A stretch of DNA of 41,798 bases from IMG/VR virus record IMGVR_UViG_3300045988_016066, positions 1 through 41,798 of that record. One strand, 5' to 3'. Numbering within the stretch: position 1 is the stretch's first letter; the number at the start of each line of letters is the position of its first letter. This document shows, piece after piece, positions 5,136 to 20,296 of this stretch. Made by a program: the position numbers and the translations under genes. The stretch is from a virus. The notes beneath the pieces were generated by a model. The model saw only the letters and a list, made by a program, of their open reading frames with translations. It searched no databases and was not told the DNA's origin.

Positions 5136-7285
5136 TTACCGCGCCCCCTGTTCCGCTCCTCGGTATAGGTGTACATGATTTCACCGACCTTGCGCTTATC
5201 AAGGTAAACGTCGCTCGGTTTGATTTGTTCGTTGCCACGCGCAGTTAAACGGTCGAGAAGCGCGTCCAGCTTACTTTCAAACTCTGGGGATATACCATAC
5301 CCATACCCGGAGGAAAACGCATTAGGCGGCACTACACCGCCCATAGCAACGGCGGGCATTCTCATGCTCAAACCGGCGAACTTATCCGTCATCCGGTCAA
5401 CAATGCCGTCCGCAACCATCGACACCCACTGCGTGTTTCTCTCAAGCGGAATGACGGCCTCCGAGCCATCTTCGCCGGCAATAAACGGAGTGCCCTTTTT
5501 GACGATGCCGCCCTTGGCGAGGCGCGGGATAGATACAGCGCTTGCCCGCCAGTTTATACCGCCGCCGCCGAAGAATTGCAAAACGCTGCTGAACGCCCCG
5601 ACGAGGTTATTGAACATCGTAATAACGCCGTTAACAAACGCTTCCACAGTGCCAAGGATACTGTTGATAAGTGAAGCGCCCCAACGTTTTATTTCAACCC
5701 ATACGTCGATCCATGCGCTCTTGATCTTGTCAAGCGCCGCCGACCAATCGCCGGTGGCGAAACCGTATACAACAGCGGCCAGCGTTTCAAAGATTGCCTT
5801 TATAAGTGACAATGCCGTGCGAATAGCGCCGACGATATTGTTAAAAGAATACTGAACGACGCCGTAAAGCAGAATGAATACTTGAGAAAGGACGTTGCCC
5901 TTTTCGGAAAGCGTTTTCAGCGCATTGTCGAACCACCCATTGACTATGCCGCTGATCTTGTCGAAAAACGCTGTGATGTCATCCCACCACCCGGACAGGA
6001 ATGAACCGAGAGCAAGGAACGCTCCGATTGCAAGCGGTATCCATGATCCGGTGAGAAGGGCAAGACCGATACCGATTTTAAGAAACCCGGTTGACATCTC
6101 CGCGCACATGTCTTTCGTAAGGCTTCCGGTGTTGATGAAATTTTTAAAAGCATCAATCAAATCCAGAGTGCCGAAAAGAACCAGCGCAATACTCGCGGCA
6201 GTTTTCCCGAACGCAAGCCCGATAGCAAGTGCTGCTATCCCCTCCAACAGGTTTTTGATAAGCCCGAGGTTGTTCTTGATCTTGTCGCTGATGGCTACAT
6301 CTTCGTACTTGATCCCGCTGCCGGAACCGCCCCCGCCGCCACCGGAGGACGAATCCTGCGCAATGGTCAGCGTATCAATGCCCATGAGCTGCTTTTTCAT
6401 TTCCTTTGCAGCGCCAGCGCCGGAGGATAGATTGTCGCTCAACTTTCCAGTGTTGGTTATGGCCCGCTTGAATGTGCTTTTCCCACTAAGAGCCGCAAAG
6501 AACGCCGCGATAGCGTCCACCGCCTTTGTGAGCCAGCCGATGAGCGTCTGCAATACAGGGATAACCGCGGTAAGTATCGGGGCGAACGCCGCACCCCATG
6601 ATGCTTTTAGCCCCTGTAAAGACGCTTTCAGTTCGTTAATGCTTTTCCGTGTCTCCGGGTCATTATCGGCATAAGCCTTAACCGCTTCAACGGTGTATTG
6701 CTTGAGCTTTCGGAAAAGGACGAACAGCGAGCGGATGCCGATGCCGTATTTGAGCAGATTCTTTATTCCGCTCTTAATGGACTGCTGCGCACCTTCCATC
6801 GCTGCCTTGAGGTCAGCACCTTTAGACGCATCGGTGATTGTCTGCGTCAGCTCCCCGGCTCTTTTTTTCTGTTCTTCAAGCTCCGCTGTCTGCTGTTTCA
6901 GCTTGTCAACGATTTTCGCGTCCTGCGCTTCAAGCCTCTGTGCGGCTTTCTCTTTCTCCGCGAGAATCTTTTCCTGCTCGGCAAGCTGCGCTTTGATTTC
7001 CGCCTGCCGCTGGGTCTCTTCGATCCATGTCTGCGGGTCAGCATTGGCGTTAATTGCGGTTTTTGCCTCGCTCTCGGCCAATGAGGATTTCAGCTTTTCG
7101 ACCTTGTCATAGGCCTGCGCCGCTTCGTCCTGCGCCTGTTTGAGCTGTTCAACGATGGGTGCGCGTTTCGCCTCGCCGCTCTCTATTTTCTTTTTGAGCC
7201 TGTCCATGTCGCGTTGGAGCTTATCCAATTCTTTGGCGGCTTGCCCGGCGTCGATTTCTACTGGGAATCTAAGTTCTGTCGCCAT
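5132..7285 (-). CDS. Tail tape measure protein
   Basis: 717 aa. Has a long N-terminal coiled coil (LKKKIESGEAKRAPIVEQLKQAQDEAAQ...), a Gly run SSSGGGGGGSGSG and several hydrophobic segments. Lies between the chaperones and the tail tip genes. Confidence 0.9.
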   Translation of the reverse strand: MATELRFPVEIDAGQAAKELDKLQRDMDRLKKKIESGEAKRAPIVEQLKQAQDEAAQAYDKVEKLKSSLAESEAKTAINANADPQTWIEETQRQAEIKAQLAEQEKILAEKEKAAQRLEAQDAKIVDKLKQQTAELEEQKKRAGELTQTITDASKGADLKAAMEGAQQSIKSGIKNLLKYGIGIRSLFVLFRKLKQYTVEAVKAYADNDPETRKSINELKASLQGLKASWGAAFAPILTAVIPVLQTLIGWLTKAVDAIAAFFAALSGKSTFKRAITNTGKLSDNLSSGAGAAKEMKKQLMGIDTLTIAQDSSSGGGGGGSGSGIKYEDVAISDKIKNNLGLIKNLLEGIAALAIGLAFGKTAASIALVLFGTLDLIDAFKNFINTGSLTKDMCAEMSTGFLKIGIGLALLTGSWIPLAIGAFLALGSFLSGWWDDITAFFDKISGIVNGWFDNALKTLSEKGNVLSQVFILLYGVVQYSFNNIVGAIRTALSLIKAIFETLAAVVYGFATGDWSAALDKIKSAWIDVWVEIKRWGASLINSILGTVEAFVNGVITMFNNLVGAFSSVLQFFGGGGINWRASAVSIPRLAKGGIVKKGTPFIAGEDGSEAVIPLERNTQWVSMVADGIVDRMTDKFAGLSMRMPAVAMGGVVPPNAFSSGYGYGISPEFESKLDALLDRLTARGNEQIKPSDVYLDKRKVGEIMYTYTEERNRGRGK

Positions 7286-11712: not shown

Positions 11713-12213
11713 TCATTTAAATTTGCCCCGAATAAGGGCGTTCATAGCGTCGTTCGTGCCATTAGCACTGTTGGCGCTGTTGCCGACGTGCGCGGACATA
11801 TCCACACGCACGGAGGCGGGTTTGCGATCTTTCAGAAACTCGTCGGCTGCCTTTTCAAAGCTCACCGTGTCCGTCACTTTCTGCCCGATCTTAAAGCAGT
11901 AAAATTCCAGCTCATCAGCCGAAACGCCTTTTGCGGTCAGATACTTTTCCCTCTCAAACTGCGTAACCTTCGCTTCGGCGGCAAGTCGCGCCGCCTTTTC
12001 GGTGTCGCGCTCTTTTTCAATGCCCTTGAGCTTGTCCGCTTCGCTCTGCTGATTGGCTTTCCAAGCCTTGTAAGCGTTCATTTCTTCCTCGCTGGGCATT
12101 CCTTTGGTTGCCCGTGCGAGACGCTTTGCAACGATGCTGTCTACCTCGGCCTGTGTAAAAGTAGCCTCGTTCCCGCCCTCGGCGGTGTTTGGATTGGTAT
12201 TCGGTTCTGCCAT
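11713..12213 (-). CDS. Capsid scaffolding protein
   Basis: Start trimmed to the ATG at 12213 (GGAGGAA 4 nt upstream). 166 aa, charged and helical (FTQAEVDSIVAKRLARATKG...EKERDTEKAARLAAEAKVTQFEREKY). Lies immediately upstream of the MCP gene. Confidence 0.75.
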   Translation of the reverse strand: MAEPNTNPNTAEGGNEATFTQAEVDSIVAKRLARATKGMPSEEEMNAYKAWKANQQSEADKLKGIEKERDTEKAARLAAEAKVTQFEREKYLTAKGVSADELEFYCFKIGQKVTDTVSFEKAADEFLKDRKPASVRVDMSAHVGNSANSANGTNDAMNALIRGKFK

Positions 12214-12219
12214 GATGAT

Positions 12220-12265
12220 TCCTCCGTTTTCCGCCCGTCGGCGTATTCCGTTTATGCCCGTCGGC
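12220..12265. repeat. Tandem ~23-bp direct repeat overlapping the scaffold gene RBS
   Basis: On the minus strand GCCGACGGGC-N3-AACGGA occurs twice: gccgacgggcataaacggaatac and gccgacgggcggaaaacggagga. Confidence 0.8.
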
Positions 12266-12305
12266 AAACAAAAAAGGAGCCTATCTCCGTTGAGACAAAC
12301 TCCTT
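12266..12305 (-). terminator. Terminator-like hairpin inside the head operon
   Basis: Minus strand reads aaggag-tttgTCTCaacgGAGAtaggc-ctcctt followed by ttttgtttg. Confidence 0.5.
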
Positions 12306-12477
12306 GAATGTTTATATATGCATGGCCGCTGTTGAGCAGTAGCGGCGCGGTATTTGTATCCCCCTCCGCAGGGGCAAGACAGAGGGAAAGGAAGGAAACC
12401 TCTGCCAAAGCAAGACCGTTATTTCTGTACCCGCCACAAGGTTAGGCGGCGCTCTCTGTTATGCTTTTATCGTTGGT

Positions 12478-15125: not shown

Positions 15126-16700
15126 TTATGCTTTCACTCCGTACAATCTGAAAACTTTCTCGAGCGCATAGCGCGTGCTGTCTATGGTGTGGTTGTCCTT
15201 GTCCGGGTATCCGCTTATCACATTTCCGTCCCGGTCTCGCTCAAATTCGTAATTTACAAACTCTCGGTAAACCGTCGGCGTCCTCTCCGGGTCAATAATG
15301 AGTTTTCGGTTTTGTAACCACTTCATCCCGTACTCGACGCTCCCCGGCCCCTTGATTGCCGAAAAAGCGTTTACACCGCTCGCCCGGAAGTCCGCAACGC
15401 TCTTCGGCTCCGCGCTATCGCAAGTCACGGGGAAATCGTCATATCCTCGGCTCTTTATCCACTCGGCATTGTCCGCGTTGCTCGTCTTGTTGTTGCAATG
15501 CTCATCAATAAAATATATCGTCTCATGCGCTACATCATAATGAACACGCACAAAGGCGAAAATGTCCGGGTAATATCCCCAGTCAACGCCTTGGTATATC
15601 CGGTCGAAGTGCTTTATCTCGTCGTCCGTTATCCGTCTTGCCTCTATGTTATCAAAAACGTTGCCGCCGTCGCCGTTCGGGATGCCGAGATATTCATGCT
15701 CGTATGCCGACGGATTAACCTCTTTCAGATGTTCAGCGTCGTTGAGAAACATCGTTCCGAGCCATTCGGCGGGAGCGTCCATATAGGTCGAGTGATGGAC
15801 AATGCGGTTTTTGTCCGGCTCTAAAAGCTGCTGATTCACCCAGTTTGCGCGGCTCTTTGGCGGGTTGTACGATCCGAAGAAATAGGAATCTACACCGCCG
15901 CGGAGTACCGATTGCTTAACGCTTCGTTCTTCTGCTGCACCGGCGAGCTGGTCTCGTTCCTCTATCCAGAGAATCCCTATATACCCGAATGGCGGCTTTA
16001 TTGATTTCAGCTTTACCGGATCGTCGCAACCTCGAAAATAAATCTTTTGCCCGGTCTTCTTGAGCGTGATCTCCGGCGGGTGGGTTTTGAAATCAAACTC
16101 GTTAGAAATCCCCATCTCGTTTATCGCCCATTGGATTTGAGAAAACACACTGTCCTTTAACGTGTTCGTCTGCTTTCGCACAACACAGGCGTGCATCATG
16201 GGGTTGTTTTTCAAAAGCTCCGTGAGCTTTTCCGATATATACGTCGATTTCAAGCCGCCGCGTCCGCCCTCAAAGATATAGTCCTTGTTCGGCTCGATCT
16301 GCCGGTTGATGTCAACAAACGCCTTGCCGATAAGGTCAGCGGGAATCCTGCACGGCTTATCCTCTGCCGCTGCGTCGTTTGTCCAGTTTTCCCACCGGTC
16401 AACAGCTCTGTCATCGCCGCTTATCGCCTTGCCGTATACGCCAGCGACAATGGCGGCATTACATGTCATATCCTCGTCGTCTATTGCAAGCCCTGTCCGC
16501 TGAATCTGCCCTTTCAGCTTTTCCGGCGCGGGCTGCTGCGCTATCGACTTTGCGAGGCTTGCAAGGCTCTTGTTAGCCCTCTTGGTCTCGCCTGAGGCTA
16601 TGCCGCCCTTTCGTCCATTTCTCGCGGCTTTCTCGCGGCTTTGATTCGCCGTGAACGCGTTCTTTTTTAAGTTCTCGTCCTGTTTGGGATTGCGTGGCAT
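15126..16700 (-). CDS. terL: Terminase large subunit (PBSX/Terminase_3-like) with ~110-aa TerS-like N-terminal extension
   Basis: Walker A is FEGGRGGLKS; also ...LWIEERDQ and a C-terminal nuclease region. N-terminus MPRNPKQDENLKK...NGRKGGIASGETKR...AIVAGVYGKAISGDDRAVDRW resembles small-terminase N-termini. Confidence 0.9.
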   Translation of the reverse strand: MPRNPKQDENLKKNAFTANQSREKAARNGRKGGIASGETKRANKSLASLAKSIAQQPAPEKLKGQIQRTGLAIDDEDMTCNAAIVAGVYGKAISGDDRAVDRWENWTNDAAAEDKPCRIPADLIGKAFVDINRQIEPNKDYIFEGGRGGLKSTYISEKLTELLKNNPMMHACVVRKQTNTLKDSVFSQIQWAINEMGISNEFDFKTHPPEITLKKTGQKIYFRGCDDPVKLKSIKPPFGYIGILWIEERDQLAGAAEERSVKQSVLRGGVDSYFFGSYNPPKSRANWVNQQLLEPDKNRIVHHSTYMDAPAEWLGTMFLNDAEHLKEVNPSAYEHEYLGIPNGDGGNVFDNIEARRITDDEIKHFDRIYQGVDWGYYPDIFAFVRVHYDVAHETIYFIDEHCNNKTSNADNAEWIKSRGYDDFPVTCDSAEPKSVADFRASGVNAFSAIKGPGSVEYGMKWLQNRKLIIDPERTPTVYREFVNYEFERDRDGNVISGYPDKDNHTIDSTRYALEKVFRLYGVKA

Positions 16701-16712
16701 GCCCTCCCTCCC

Positions 16713-16744
16713 TTGAAAATGAAAAAGCCGCGTAATGCGGCTTT
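16713..16744 (-). terminator. Intrinsic terminator 12 nt upstream of the TerL start codon
   Basis: Minus strand reads AAAGCCGC-attac-GCGGCTTT followed by ttcattttc. Only the RBS gggagggaggg separates it from the ATG at 16700. Confidence 0.8.
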
Positions 16745-16748
16745 GCTG

Positions 16749-17111
16749 TTATTTTTTGTACTTGTACCACGGCGATTTCTTTGTCGCCGCGTCTATGTTT
16801 CTATCTTCCCACCATTTAAGGTCTTTTTGCGCTTCTTTCGTCCTGCCGTTAAGCAAGTGTCTTGTCGCGCTGTATACAAGATCGTAATACAAGCGGTCTT
16901 GGCTGTACCGGGAATCGGCATAACGAATGTAAGCATCGGTAGCCCCGTAAAGTGCTTTCGTCGTTTCCGGCTTTGCCGTTATCTCGCCGTCTTTTATCGC
17001 TTTGTAAATCGTTCCCGCTTCTTTTCGGGTGATTTATCCGTGTTTATACGGTGTGTATTCTACTTTATCGCGCTTCGGAGAAATCCCGCTTGACGCCCCA
17101 CGCCCGCCCAT
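16749..17111 (-). pseudogene. Third MGGRGAxSG-family gene, interrupted by an in-frame TAA after codon 25
   Basis: ATG at 17111 gives MGGRGASSGISPKRDKVEYTPYKHG, then TAA at 17036..17034. The same frame stays open for 94 further codons with no Met (ITRKEAGTIYKAIKDGEITAKPE...WWEDRNIDAATKKSPWYKYKK) up to the TAA at 16751..16749. Confidence 0.6.
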
Positions 17112-17127
17112 TTTGTCACACCCTTCG

Positions 17128-17166
17128 TAAAATAAAATTCGCCGTTCTGAATTATCAAAACGGCGA
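17128..17166 (-). terminator. Intrinsic terminator after the second MGGRGAxSG gene
   Basis: Minus strand reads TCGCCGTT-ttgataattcag-AACGGCGA followed by attttatttta. The loop and tail also contain a possible TTGATA-18-TATTTT promoter. Confidence 0.65.
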
Positions 17167-17248
17167 TTGCTATTAAATTAAATAAAATGGCAAGCGGGCG
17201 GATTTCAACCGCCATCTCCGCTTTCGCGGCGTTTTCACTCGTAAACTA

Positions 17249-17641
17249 CTACTTGCCGCTTCTATTATTCCACACGCTTTTTACCCTGTCAACCAGCTTC
17301 TTTTCTTTTGCGCTCAGTTTCTTGGTTCCATGTTCATCATGGATGTAACCGTAGTGTGTATGCTCTTTTTCGCTCTTGCCATCGATAAAGTGCGGTTGCC
17401 CATTAAGGTCAATCGTTTTATATCGTTTGTTCTCTTTGTCGTAAAAAGAAATAAATTTTATTACATCCAGCCTGTTAACCGTAACGTATATGCGTCTTCT
17501 CGTCTGCGTCTCAAGCGGAGCTGTTGCACTGCCGGAAAGCTGGTATTTTACAAACTTAATGTTTCCATCCTGCAATATCGTTTTGTACTCGCTGCCGTAT
17601 GGGTGCTTTCCTGTGCCGCTTGCTGCGCCTCTGCCGCCCAC
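17249..17641 (-). CDS. MGGRGAxSG-family protein 2 (130 aa), function unknown
   Basis: GTG start overlapping the upstream TAG by 1 nt. MGGRGAASGTGKHPYGSEYKTILQDGNIKFVKYQL...HTHYGYIHDEHG. Confidence 0.75.
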   Translation of the reverse strand: MGGRGAASGTGKHPYGSEYKTILQDGNIKFVKYQLSGSATAPLETQTRRRIYVTVNRLDVIKFISFYDKENKRYKTIDLNGQPHFIDGKSEKEHTHYGYIHDEHGTKKLSAKEKKLVDRVKSVWNNRSGK

Positions 17642-17952
17642 TAACTAAACCTCTCCACCAGTTTCTTTTTTGCCAACCGAACGCGGCGGCGCTGCGCCAT
17701 CAAAGCGCGCATATCTCCGTCTTTAACGTCGCCTCGCTGTATGGCGCTGATCTCCGATTGCACGGAAGTCTCGAAATCCTGCACGCCTTTGTATACGGCC
17801 TGAACCTGTCTATCCGTTTTTGCGCTTTGAGCCGCTTTAACAAGCCTATCAGCTCTTTCCGTCACTCCGGGATAATGCCATTTGCCGCCGCTCTTCGTCC
17901 GCGGAAACTGCACAATATTTGATACTCCGCTGCTCGCTCCACGTCCGCCCAT
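17641..17952 (-). CDS. MGGRGAxSG-family protein 1 (103 aa), function unknown
   Basis: ATG overlaps the ParB-like gene stop by 1 nt. MGGRGASSGVSNIVQFPRTKSGGKWHYPG..., with a helical basic C-terminus. Confidence 0.75.
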   Translation of the reverse strand: MGGRGASSGVSNIVQFPRTKSGGKWHYPGVTERADRLVKAAQSAKTDRQVQAVYKGVQDFETSVQSEISAIQRGDVKDGDMRALMAQRRRVRLAKKKLVERFS

Positions 17953-18974
17953 CAGCTTTTCCCTCCGAATCTCTCCGTGTTATGGTTCGCAATGTAACTC
18001 ACTCCGCACGGGAATTTATATCCTATATCGCCGCCGTAACATACGACGTGCGACGGTTTCAACCGCTTTATTGCTTCTTCCATTCCGGCGAACCATATAC
18101 CACCGGCGTTTTTATCGCGCTTTACGCCTATCGTACTAACCGAAACTACACCGCCCGGCTCTATGCCGTCAAAGCAGAAATCAAAGCTCCGTTCGTCCGC
18201 CCATTGCAACGTGGGTATAACCGTTATGCCTGCGTCCTGCATGATCTGCCCGATCAACCGGGAGCGGTATACGTTCCATATCTGCATTGCAAGCGGCATA
18301 TCCAGATAAAGCGAAAAGTCCGGCGTGAGAACACAGTCGAACATACCCAGCTTATCAATATACTTGCCCGGCGTTGTCCATACTCTTTCAAATTGGTAAT
18401 CGTCGATATAGAAGTGTATGCCTTTGTCGTAGTCGTCGCTCGTGAGCATATAGTTAAAAGAGATCAAATCCTCCGGTATGTGGTCTGTTGCTTTCAATGT
18501 TGGCATGTCCCAATTGCCAGCGGCGCGTTCCGCGTCAAAATCGCGCAGATTCATTTTACTGTACGTCTTCTCTCGTTCGTCGCCGTAATAGCCGTCGTCC
18601 TCTTCTTCCTCCGGCTCATCGGCATAGCCGAGAAAACCGAGGTCAAGGCTCGGAAGCTCCAAGGATAGCATGTTCTTGTCAAAGCCGCTGTCCATCGTGG
18701 TCTTGTTGTGAGCGATGGTGTACTCCCGGCGCTGCTTGTCGGTCAGATGGTCGAGCCGTATGCACGGCGCTTCTTTTATCCCCATCTGCCGCAGGGCTTC
18801 AAATCTCCCATGGCCCTCTACAATGGTGTTAGATTTGCCCCATACAGCGATAGGGTCGTTCATTCCATACCGAGCGATGGATTCCTTGATCTCGTCGGTC
18901 TGCTCTTGCGGATGCTCTTTTGTGTTGTTGGCATACGGCTTTATCTCGTCCAGCCGCAGTGTGATTACTTCCAT
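17952..18974 (-). CDS. ParB-like N-terminal (nuclease/CTPase-fold) domain protein with DUF4417-like C-terminal domain
   Basis: LRLDEIKPYANNTKEHPQEQTDEIKESIARYGMNDPIAVWGKSNTIVEGHGRFEALRQMG (ParB N-domain). C-terminal IHFYIDDYQFERVW...VLTPDFSLYLDMPLAMQIWNVYRSRLIGQ. Start set at the ATG at 18974, because the ORF-track GTG at 19040 lies inside the terminator stem. Confidence 0.75.
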   Translation of the reverse strand: MEVITLRLDEIKPYANNTKEHPQEQTDEIKESIARYGMNDPIAVWGKSNTIVEGHGRFEALRQMGIKEAPCIRLDHLTDKQRREYTIAHNKTTMDSGFDKNMLSLELPSLDLGFLGYADEPEEEEDDGYYGDEREKTYSKMNLRDFDAERAAGNWDMPTLKATDHIPEDLISFNYMLTSDDYDKGIHFYIDDYQFERVWTTPGKYIDKLGMFDCVLTPDFSLYLDMPLAMQIWNVYRSRLIGQIMQDAGITVIPTLQWADERSFDFCFDGIEPGGVVSVSTIGVKRDKNAGGIWFAGMEEAIKRLKPSHVVCYGGDIGYKFPCGVSYIANHNTERFGGKS

Positions 18975-19022
18975 CTCCGCCGCCCCCTCCGCTGCGTACG
19001 GCTTTCCCGCCTCTCGGCTTCG

Positions 19023-19082
19023 CCCAAAATAAAAAGCCACGCTTTGGCGCTCGGTGATCGTCCGGCGTCTCTGCGTGGCTTT
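19023..19082 (-). terminator. Leader hairpin plus U-tract immediately downstream of the putative late promoter
   Basis: Minus strand reads AAAGCCACGC-(30 nt)-GCGTGGCTTT followed by ttattttggg. It begins about 4 nt after the predicted transcription start. Confidence 0.55.
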
Positions 19083-19092
19083 GGATGCTATT

Positions 19093-19136
19093 ATTATATC
19101 ACGGATTTTTGAAAAGTCACTGGCGCAAAACTGGCG
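19093..19136 (-). promoter_or_regulatory. Extended -10 promoter (TGaTATAAT) with GTGACT -35 and two upstream CGCCAGT direct repeats
   Basis: Minus strand reads taaCGCCAGTtttgCGCCAGTGACTtttcaaaaatccgTGaTATAAT. The repeats have an 11-bp period (19119..19125 and 19130..19136). Spacer is 16 nt. Confidence 0.65.
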
Positions 19137-19583
19137 TTATAGGTCAAACGAGCTGTATCTCGCGGTGCAGTAGCTCGACAATGCCCGTGTCGCCTTCTTC
19201 CAGACGGTCGTTTCGTCGATGATTCCAAGCTCGTCGCATAGCCGCTGCGAGCCATTTTTCTGCTTGTCGATGTACAAAACCTCAAGGATGCGCCGCTCAT
19301 CCTCAGTCAGCAACGCGAGCGCCTGCCGTGTGAGTTTGACGTCTTTCTCGGCAAACATCAGTTTGTCTTTCAGCGCGTCAACAGTAACGATGCTGTTGTT
19401 CATGCGTTCCTCATACGACGTGCCGCCGCCCTGCACCGGGGCCGTCCCCGTGGATGCGCTCTTGATGGATGTCATGCGCTCGCGCTCCATGTTGATCTCC
19501 TCCGGTATGGACAATATCGCCGCCTCGTTTTTCCGTAGGTTGAACTGGTCAGCCTTGCATTTCATTTTCCAGAGTTCGTTCAC
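19137..19583 (-). CDS. Late transcription regulator, sigma-70 region-4-like (ArpU/RinA/DUF1492 class)
   Basis: 148 aa, GTG start after GAGGTGA. C-terminal ...TRQALALLTEDERRILEVLYIDKQKNGSQRLCDELGIIDETTVWKKATRALSSY is an HTH of the sigma r4 type. Sits just upstream of the late region. Confidence 0.6.
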   Translation of the reverse strand: MNELWKMKCKADQFNLRKNEAAILSIPEEINMERERMTSIKSASTGTAPVQGGGTSYEERMNNSIVTVDALKDKLMFAEKDVKLTRQALALLTEDERRILEVLYIDKQKNGSQRLCDELGIIDETTVWKKATRALSSYCTARYSSFDL

Positions 19584-19648: not shown

Positions 19649-20296
19649 TCATGCCTCCCACGAAACGCTTAACTTTGCCATGCTCACGGAGCCGAGAACG
19701 GAGAATACAAGGTTCAGCGCATCTGTGGTCGTGGTATTCTCGAAACAGAGGCTTCCGCTCTTGGGAGCGCCCCCCCTATTCTGTACCGGCGGAGCGTCAG
19801 GGGCTTTGACCTCCTCCGGCGGTTCTTCGTCTTCCTGCTCGGACGGTTTTGTTTCCGTCGGCGCTTCTACGGGATCGGCTTTTGGCTCTTCGGCGCAAAA
19901 GGCACGGAACCCGCCGTTGTTGGTATTCGCCCATCTTCCACGGTGCGGAAACTTGATGCCGAGCTTCTTTGTCTCCAAGCCCACCGTCTGAACAGAAACG
20001 CCGAACATGGCGGCAAGGTCTTTTTGCTGCACGTCGAAGCGCTCCTGTAGCTTCTCTATGTACTCCCGGCGCAAATCGTCCGGGAGTAACTTAAATTCTT
20101 TCCACTGCATGGGTCGATTGAGAGAGTATGTTTTTATTTCGCCGTTCATGGCTTCACGTTCCTTTCTTGTAAGATAATCTGACGGGAAGATGACTTTCCC
20201 GCCCTTTCCGGCGTGGGTGCGCTTATTGTGTATGCCACGCGCCGTTCGCTTCTTCTCTGCGCAGTCAGTAATGAAAACGTACTTTTCATCGTTCAC
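19649..20296 (-). CDS. DNA-binding protein with internal HTH and acidic/Pro-rich C-terminus, unknown role
   Basis: 215 aa. ...RREYIEKLQERFDVQQKDLAAMFGVSVQTVGLETKKLG...; the C-terminal half is EEPKADPVEAPTETKPSEQEDEEPPEEVKAPDAPP. Confidence 0.6.
   Translation of the reverse strand: MNDEKYVFITDCAEKKRTARGIHNKRTHAGKGGKVIFPSDYLTRKEREAMNGEIKTYSLNRPMQWKEFKLLPDDLRREYIEKLQERFDVQQKDLAAMFGVSVQTVGLETKKLGIKFPHRGRWANTNNGGFRAFCAEEPKADPVEAPTETKPSEQEDEEPPEEVKAPDAPPVQNRGGAPKSGSLCFENTTTTDALNLVFSVLGSVSMAKLSVSWEA

Follow-up and report, generated by a model that had tools for sequence, protein, structure and literature searches.

An Ltr-type late promoter with a terminator close behind it in a phage of gut Clostridia, and its possible role in antitermination

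The regulator gene and the late promoter region

We examined the late control region of a viral DNA of 41,798 nt (IMG/VR record IMGVR_UViG_3300045988_016066, positions 1 to 41,798; hereafter the window). All genes in the late-region part of the window are on the minus strand. The 148-aa late regulator gene ends the replication/early module and the packaging module comes next, a layout shared by its relatives. A gap of 162 nt separates the regulator from the first late gene and contains, in order, a repeat pair, a promoter and a hairpin with a T-rich tract:

19583..19137, minus strand: late regulator gene, 148 aa, stop codon at 19139..19137
19136..19130 and 19125..19119, minus strand: predicted Ltr operator CGCCAGT-N4-CGCCAGT, 11-bp period, about -50..-33 from the predicted start, beginning 1 nt past the regulator stop
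19120..19093, minus strand: late promoter GTGACT-16-TGaTATAAT with extended -10 (GTGACT 19120..19115, TG 19101..19100, TATAAT 19098..19093)
19090..19085, minus strand: TAGCAT (TAnnRT), 2 nt past the -10, spanning the predicted start at about 19086
19082..19026, minus strand: terminator t1, a 10-bp stem pairing AAAGCCACGC (19082..19073) with GCGTGGCTTT (19042..19033) across a 30-nt loop
19018..18975 (about 45 nt), minus strand: conserved leader block GCCGAGAGGCGGGAAAGCCGTACGCAGCGGAGGGGGCGGCGG, which includes the ribosome-binding site (RBS) of the first late gene
18974..17952, minus strand: first late gene, ParB_N + DUF4417, nuclease-like (Pfam DUF4417 1.2e-73; phrog_940)

The 148-aa protein matches Pfam DUF1492 marginally (21.7 bits, cutoff 21.5), phrog_36 (6.9e-10) and phrog_248 (5e-07), for which the PHROG annotations are transcriptional regulator/activator, and weakly ArpU (TIGR01637, 16 bits, under cutoff). 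In its AlphaFold2 model (pLDDT 85.8) two long helices make up the N-terminal part and three helices form a C-terminal domain. By Foldseek, the latter resembles the -35-binding region 4 of the extracytoplasmic function (ECF) sigma factors SigL and SigD (rmsd 1.6-1.9, TMt 0.70-0.78), which agrees with an original prediction made from this sequence that had called the protein sigma-like. A search of solved structures with the profile of the protein returned noise only, and no Q protein structure is among the best 50 Foldseek matches listed. The Ltr superfamily consists of RinA, ArpU, LtrA, LtrB and LtrC, and DUF1492 proteins are named LtrB (PMC3753634). The identification of the window protein as a distant LtrB/DUF1492-type member of this (RinA/ArpU) superfamily, with a sigma-region-4-like C-terminus, is well supported by the sequence and model comparisons. 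An antiterminator at this locus had been expected to be new for the phage group; since the protein is recognisable as Ltr superfamily through DUF1492, phrog_36, phrog_248 and, weakly, ArpU, it is not new to the group as a regulator. Its gene is the only Ltr copy seen in the window. Pfam searches of about 30 window open reading frames (ORFs) revealed no Q (Q-lambda, Q21, Q82), N, NusG-like or extra sigma gene, consistent with the earlier statement that neither a Q-like nor an N-like gene is recognisable. L075 (2185-2721) and L078 (1079-1546), two related loci, have a further gene for a sigma-70-like protein (region 2 plus region 4, or just region 4) that precedes ltr by a few genes; we found none like it in the window.

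Ltr proteins have been shown by experiment to be the sole phage factor required for late-operon expression and to bind 7-nt direct repeats directly 3' of their own coding sequence (PMC3753634, PMC3152322). The two CGCCAGT repeats are, by position and sequence, the probable Ltr operator. The window has just one copy of the pair, as would fit a phage with one late promoter, and the pair reaches into the -35 position of the TGnTATAAT promoter. Relatives carry several repeat variants upstream of the -35, each of which pairs with one variant of the C-terminal helix-turn-helix of the regulator.

The coordinates, strand and 11-bp period of the repeats and the GTGACT-16-TGaTATAAT promoter are all as first described. 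The late promoter is the only TGnTATAAT-NN-TAnnnT site in the window, with the start predicted at about 7 nt past the -10. It had been called the best promoter in the window, but by hexamer score it reaches 10/12 whereas TTGACA-17-TGgAATAAT at 17292..17264 reaches 11/12. The TAnnRT hexamer is located at about -4..+2, 2 nt past the -10, and may be a start-site motif.

The 10-bp hairpin of t1, placed earlier at 19082..19023 some 4 nt past the start, was confirmed; its stem begins at about +5 and its fold has a dG of -27.3 (z -2.9). The T-rich tract TTTTTATTTT (19035..19026) overlaps the final three bases of the stem. A 30-nt loop is atypical for an intrinsic terminator; t1 and the three further predicted terminators described below (t2-t4) all have a GC-rich stem with a U tract next to it. 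Rfam at gathering thresholds gave no match in the whole window; with E-value thresholds, the sole match for the t1 region was a chance-level, opposite-strand ctRNA-like one (25 bits, E 1.2). We considered an antiterminator fold in which the t1 loop pairs with the downstream leader and found nothing convincing (full-leader fold z -1.9). A packaging (pac/cos) site in the t1 loop was set aside, as divergent relatives retain only the hairpin and U tract. The leader block at 19018..18975 is kept where the downstream gene differs, and is partly kept in the related loci L039 and L075.

Conservation of the promoter-then-terminator order

We compared the gap with 37 IMG/VR loci and about 45 metagenome loci whose regulators are 72-99% identical to that of the window. 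Promoter, repeats and hairpin are present throughout the 37 IMG/VR relatives, and the majority of 80 metagenome relatives have them too. Among these close relatives the -10, the t1 hairpin including its loop, the U tract and the leader block are nearly invariant, and the flanking genes differ: the downstream gene is ParB-DUF4417, another ParB-like gene or a different gene altogether. The phage collection contained no close DNA-level relative (DUF4417 fragments only, and two weak protein matches) and the genome contig collection 3 loci only; a scan of viral contigs with the conserved leader block returned the known contigs and one new one.

The same layout is present in divergent loci from a Ruminococcaceae metagenome-assembled genome and human-gut metagenomes, at 32-68% protein identity (L039, L075, L082, L122, L141, L142, L145, L148, L149, L152, L153, L154 and L157). 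Here 2-3 direct repeats with an 11-bp period (GCGACAGT, GGGCA, CCGGAA, GCGGA, GGGACA, GCGCCA) are followed by TGnTAnnnT, 2-3 bases, TAnnRT, a GC-rich hairpin and a U-rich tract, often with the RBS of the first late gene next. The TAnnRT element was recognised by eye in about 21 of 25 lineages, with variable inner bases. Of 15 divergent leaders that were folded, 14 form strong structures (dG -13.5 to -26.7, z -2.5 to -7.3), and by our own count all 14 have 5-9 T in the 10 nt past the stem. Loops range from 4 to 30 nt and stems cannot be aligned across lineages, so it is the terminator-shaped structure that is conserved and not its sequence. Strong canonical terminators occupy the t1 position in L075, L141 and the Streptococcus phage phi7917. 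In phi7917 and the L145-type leaders the U tract abuts the RBS, so that no promoter can follow the terminator; the distance from its end to the first late ATG is 18 nt in phi7917.

An inserted opposite-strand gene cassette is located between promoter and late genes in L078 and between ltr and operator in L081; the position of the latter means that operator and promoter remain with the late operon. A 47-49% paralogue of the regulator (L130-L139) is encoded elsewhere, before a small membrane-protein gene, and does not have the repeat-promoter-hairpin layout. Both regulator paralogues occur together on one 52-kb contig (L100 and L132).

We also compared seven Streptococcus DUF1492 phages (Sfi21, Javan509, phi7917, Javan231, DCC1738, phiARI0462 and Javan362). 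All seven contain TGnTAnnAT-NN-TAnnRT-CAA(G/A)A past the ltr stop, TAnnRT included. Javan509 and phi7917 have (A/G)ACAGT repeats with a period of about 11 bp and the same core as the window operator. A hairpin and U tract directly follow the promoter in four phages (Sfi21, Javan509, phi7917, Javan231; dG -15 to -25). The other three have a tRNA or tRNA-like element in the leader, directly past the promoter in two pneumococcal phages. In the S. aureus phage 80alpha, which encodes RinA, TGGCAGT-N4-TGGCAGT follows the rinA stop, a -10-like TATTAT is found 20 nt on, a spacing as in the window, and an intrinsic terminator lies about 65 nt past TATTAT, downstream of both repeats and -10-like hexamer. 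The promoter-then-terminator order noted earlier in this one phage is thus real and conserved far beyond it, in relatives of 32-99% identity and in Streptococcus phages. On these sequence comparisons the combination of promoter, repeats and hairpin is more than chance.

Three further predicted terminators lie between the first late gene and the capsid genes:

17166..17129, minus strand: terminator t2, 12-bp stem (17166..17139) and ATTTTATTTT, following a tRNA-like RNA; highly conserved
16744..16714, minus strand: terminator t3, stem (16744..16724) and TTCATTTTC, with the T tract ending 12-13 nt before the TerL ATG at 16700
16700..15126, minus strand: TerL, 524 aa (Pfam Terminase_3 + Terminase_3C)
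12305..12264, minus strand: terminator-like t4, 14 pairs (hairpin 12305..12274), in the 265-nt gap from minor capsid protein 2 to scaffold

TerL is followed by portal, minor capsid protein 2, scaffold and major capsid genes, in that order. The minus strand of the window contains 31 terminator-like sites, compared with 14.3 +/- 3.9 in shuffled sequences, and t2 and t3 are among the best. We looked at about 25 related TerL genes, and each has a hairpin with a T tract ahead of it, in one of at least 5 sequence versions. One of these, in L077 (about 7040-7075), has the inner hairpin inverted relative to L075 and L122 (GTTCTGAATTATCAAAAC vs GTTTTGATAATTCAGAAC) with the structure intact. Because the structure persists through at least 5 versions, the inverted one included, we take this as strong evidence, at the sequence level, that the pre-TerL hairpin is itself under selection. 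With a terminator ahead of each related TerL gene, late transcription has to proceed across terminators, and across several of them, as t4 also lies before the scaffold and capsid genes.

The original prediction, that TerL can be reached only by reading through up to three terminators, holds for the terminators and for the space: t3 indeed ends 12-13 nt before the TerL ATG, leaving no room for a promoter, which is also the case in relatives. A promoter within 16745..17250 that would bypass the terminators was looked for, and none appears; no promoter-like site was seen near t4. The claim has to be revised for t2 and t3. The coordinates given for t2 were correct, but it is not free-standing: it belongs to a tRNA-like small RNA (sRNA) unit with its own promoter-like sequence. 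Terminator t3 travels with the inserted cassette of small protein 3, and where that cassette is absent t2 abuts the TerL RBS. The structured 265-nt gap that contains t4 (12213..12477) is conserved in relatives, some of which have 120-350-nt insertions just upstream of the t4 hairpin.

Antitermination and competing explanations

In most respects the window matches known Ltr superfamily control. The packaging module is preceded by a small regulator gene whose stop codon is immediately followed by 7-nt direct repeats; the entire late region is served by one late promoter; ltr and the first late gene are separated by a gap with a terminator in it; and the protein matches DUF1492 and phrog activator families. 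The operator core (C/A)CAGT and the promoter signature TGnTAnnnT-NN-TAnnRT are shared with Streptococcus LtrB phages. The differences are the host, an Oscillospiraceae-like gut Clostridia, and the marginal DUF1492 match. The window is a distant relative within known Ltr/LtrB late control, in a phage of gut Clostridia. Published Ltr systems place or assume the terminator before the promoter; in the sequences of the window, Sfi21 and phi7917 it comes after the promoter. We found no paper proposing Ltr antitermination, and the family-wide promoter-then-terminator order therefore appears undescribed. Our search of the literature for a link between RinA, ArpU or Ltr proteins and antitermination likewise found none, with subscription journals outside its coverage.

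The arrangement recalls the lambda Q/PR'/tR' system (also Q21 and Q82), in which the regulator gene lies directly upstream of the target promoter, the regulator binds DNA there (as predicted here), the promoter has a terminator close behind it, further terminators are found inside the single late operon, and the regulator-operator pair is exchanged between phages. The earlier comparison with PR'-tR' and Q is borne out for the layout, by sequence and conservation, and fails for the protein, which has no sequence or fold similarity to Q families. The details also differ. The window sites are upstream repeats at about -50..-33, whereas those of lambda lie between -35 and -10 or downstream; the -10-like element is at about -4..+2 in the window and at +1..+6 in lambda; the terminator is at about +65 rather than +194; and antitermination is demonstrated in lambda and inferred here. 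In the Lactococcus phage TP901-1, Alt is a late activator on direct repeats at -76..-32 of the late start, ahead of terS; it belongs to another protein family, and the papers citing that work do not mention a promoter-proximal terminator. Tn916 canT and HK022 put also concern insulating mobile-element terminators that must be overridden for late or transfer genes (PMC11658703), but they are cis RNAs made before the terminators, whereas the window leader conserves the terminator hairpin alone.

We propose that the gap acts as the switch for late genes in an Ltr-type temperate phage whose host belongs to the gut Clostridia (Oscillospiraceae/Ruminococcaceae). The Ltr protein most likely binds the two CGCCAGT repeats, the TGnTATAAT promoter would be the single late promoter of the phage, and its transcript is predicted to form a GC-rich hairpin with a U tract within the first 60 nt or so and to pass t2, t3 and t4 on the way to terminase, scaffold and capsid; these steps are well supported by the conserved features described above. 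Terminator t1 would stop read-through from the ltr-containing early/middle operon as well as basal firing of the late promoter. Polymerase that starts with Ltr bound would become terminator-resistant, in a promoter-specific, Q-like form of processive antitermination. More speculatively, Ltr may keep its sigma-4-like domain on the beta-flap, close to the RNA exit channel. TAnnRT may act as a sigma-dependent pause/loading site or as a second -10-like element.

We hold this reading of the window tentatively, as one that falls a little short of an even chance. It is slightly favoured because the order is kept across distant phages, because several lineages have strong terminators, because published reporters without Ltr show no read-through, and because four terminators precede the abundant virion proteins. 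The lack of a Q, N, NusG-like or extra sigma gene among the ORFs searched also speaks for it. It would also account for the RinA data: the sequences that RinA requires lie beyond 155 bp upstream of the mapped 5' end and a terminator separates the two, a mechanism that its authors called 'more complex' (PMC3152322). Its extension to the family, in which the Ltr 'activators' (LtrB/DUF1492, perhaps RinA and others) would be promoter-loaded processive antiterminators and a Gram-positive, sigma-4-like analogue of lambda Q, is more doubtful.

Several observations weigh against antitermination. Published work casts Ltr proteins as initiation activators (PMC3753634, PMC3152322, PMC13123087). In Phi13, which encodes LtrC, the repeats lie at -107..-42 of the mapped start and a -200..+50 reporter is Ltr-dependent (PMC13123087), so that at least LtrC activates initiation at the repeat-adjacent promoter. 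In 80alpha and phi11 a 5'-triphosphate end maps downstream of the terminator (PMC3152322). The window regulator is not similar to Q proteins. The strength of t1-t4 is a prediction from sequence, and the t1 loop is unusual; t2 and t3 are parts of insertions, an sRNA gene for t2 and a small-gene cassette for t3, and could be inefficient or incidental. TAnnRT may merely be the start-site region, with a pyrimidine-purine at -1/+1, and the co-variation of repeats and protein could be explained by physical linkage alone.

The strongest competitor makes do with initiation: Ltr would only activate the promoter, t1 would be an insulator against read-through from the upstream operon, positioned past the promoter since the operator has to sit next to ltr, and t1-t4 would be leaky enough for a strong promoter to yield sufficient read-through with no dedicated antitermination. 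The published activator role, the Phi13 reporter, the wide t1 loop, the arrival of t2 and t3 with mobile cassettes and the interruption of several U tracts, e.g. UUUGCUAUU, are all as this explanation expects. Four serial terminators at 80% each, however, would let less than 1% of transcripts reach the most abundant virion proteins, and canonical strong terminators stand at the t1 position in L075, L141 and phi7917. Reporters driven from a plasmid promoter showed no detectable read-through without Ltr, which implies an efficient terminator (PMC3753634, PMC3152322). We regard leaky insulation as a serious but somewhat improbable account. That the hairpin is mainly a 5' stabiliser or processing element against 5' exonuclease, ineffective as a terminator for late mRNA, is unlikely. 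The short distance of 4-10 nt that separates the hairpin from the predicted 5' end in the majority of lineages, and its replacement by tRNA or tRNA-like elements (processing sites) in some Streptococcus leaders, would fit such a role; yet a stabiliser needs no U-rich tract, which all 14 folded leaders possess, and published data demand a terminator in the ltr-late intergenic region (PMC3753634, PMC3152322).

Two explanations have still less in their favour. A cis-acting leader RNA could confer terminator resistance in the manner of HK022 put or Tn916 canT, with Ltr merely starting transcription. An RNA antiterminator together with insulating terminators does exist in a Gram-positive mobile element (PMC11658703), and the 30-nt loop and the block at 19018..18975 are unusually conserved in close relatives. 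Against this, a comparison with RNA antiterminators (put, EAR, canT-like) found no Rfam family match, only about 5 nt precede t1, too little for an RNA element acting on it, and the leaders of divergent relatives share just the hairpin and U tract. With so short a preceding sequence and leaders unconserved across lineages, an RNA-based mechanism at t1 is quite improbable. The least probable explanation is that promoter and t1 form a stand-alone sRNA gene of about 60 nt, with the late genes transcribed from elsewhere. Promoter, hairpin and U tract are the anatomy of an sRNA gene, and the opposite-strand ctRNA-like Rfam match, weak as it is, points the same way; however, the hairpin sequence is unconserved across relatives, the late genes have no other promoter, and the operator is at the published Ltr position.

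In many Gram-positive phages, Ltr proteins govern particle production and lysis, as well as how pathogenicity islands and virulence genes are transferred, and their mechanism has been described only as 'activation'. The window and its relatives suggest a late promoter adjoining the operator and then an intrinsic terminator, from Streptococcus dairy phages to gut Clostridia phages. The puzzle of RinA acting from far upstream across a terminator becomes the question of whether Ltr changes the fraction of read-through. If antitermination is correct, Ltr proteins would be a new family of processive antiterminator proteins on a sigma-region-4 fold; if it is not, the order would represent a conserved insulator design, useful for annotation and phage engineering.

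The tRNA-like RNA, small-gene cassettes and other features

The remaining features of the late region and its upstream flank are:

20296..19649, minus strand: 215-aa ORF, no family match
17952..17641, minus strand: small protein 1, 103 aa, N-terminus MGGRGASSG
17641..17249, minus strand: small protein 2, 130 aa, N-terminus (M/V)GGRGAASG (window copy VGGRGAASG), phrog_9479
17292..17264, minus strand: promoter-like TTGACA-17-TGgAATAAT (11/12 plus TG), ending about 7 nt before the tRNA-like RNA
17259..17183, minus strand: tRNA-like RNA (70-nt cloverleaf at 17257..17188), whose anticodon arm is replaced by a 4-bp stem and a GAAA tetraloop
17111..16749, minus strand: small protein 3, MGGRGASSG start, in-frame TAA at 17036..17034

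The 215-aa product had been described as a helix-turn-helix protein; neither this motif nor a family is detectable in it. The start of the ParB_N-DUF4417 gene was corrected to the ATG at 18974.

The tRNA-like RNA ahead of t2 has a fold z of -4.1 and scores just below cutoff against Rfam tRNA (28.5 bits, cutoff 29) and below cutoff against SpF41_sRNA (RF02435; 40.1 bits, cutoff 52). ARAGORN calls no tRNA at 17259..17183 on account of the short stem and GAAA tetraloop. All seven variants compared have 4 bp and a GNRA/GNNA tetraloop here and thus differ from a tRNA with its 7-nt anticodon loop. A covariance model of the element (R1) found 23 strong matches in relatives, in 8 sequence variants. 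With the Streptococcus SpF41 copy added, 94% of cells are paired and 7 of 19 pairs show compensatory changes, a result equalled in none of 500 shuffles. The element is always just ahead of a terminator and the TerL RBS and overlaps the stop codon of a phrog_9479-type gene. Counterparts were also located in L165 (4342-4448) and L166 (4353-4461).

Most variants contain a consensus extended -10 promoter-like sequence upstream of the RNA, in the last codons of the phrog_9479-type gene. Equivalents in the variants and in the Streptococcus phage Javan23 are TTGCAA/TGgTATGAT, TTGAAA/TGgTACAAT and TTGAAA/TGGTATAAT. The site at 17292..17264 may be the RNA's own promoter, and could in part be a by-product of conserved codons. 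SpF41 copies in the Streptococcus phages Str01 and Javan23 (94.7-99.6 bits) have the same neighbours as the window element. Both combine a cloverleaf with a terminator, overlap the 3' end of phrog_9479, lie just upstream of terminase genes and follow an extended -10-like sequence; the window element differs in its sub-cutoff score and its host class. It is a distant relative of SpF41_sRNA and could serve as a processing signal, a decoy or in some other role. A suppressor tRNA that decodes the in-frame TAA of small protein 3 was rejected, as the RNA lacks an anticodon loop and the codon reads CAA in relatives.

Some relatives have real tRNA genes (Thr-UGU, Gly-UCC, Gln, Met) in the zone of the tRNA-like RNA. 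Near the late promoter, tRNA genes (Thr-UGU, Gly-UCC, Gln-UUG) or annotated odd tRNAs are present in L141 (2197-2270), L142 (3616-3689), L150 (3555-3629), L010 (6443-6514), L153 (3723-3797), L149 (2232-2386) and L172 (1193-1276), mostly in the late leader from promoter to terminase and, in L149, just upstream of ltr. A degenerate tRNA-Gly copy is retained in L007, L009 and L083.

The small proteins that start with MGGRGASSG have unrelated bodies, and their genes occur as swapped cassettes between the ParB-like gene and TerL at many loci. Their common N-terminus might be a targeting/processing tag or a recombination handle. Small protein 2 is 42% identical to gp0033 of Javan23. Because L033, L102 and L119 read CAA (Gln) where the window has TAA, the window copy of small protein 3 contains a nonsense mutation. 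No separate small terminase gene was seen in the window. TerL has a basic 120-aa N-terminal extension (16700..16340; phrog_2412 on residues 8-110), missing from the TerL match in L031, which may be a fused TerS-like domain.

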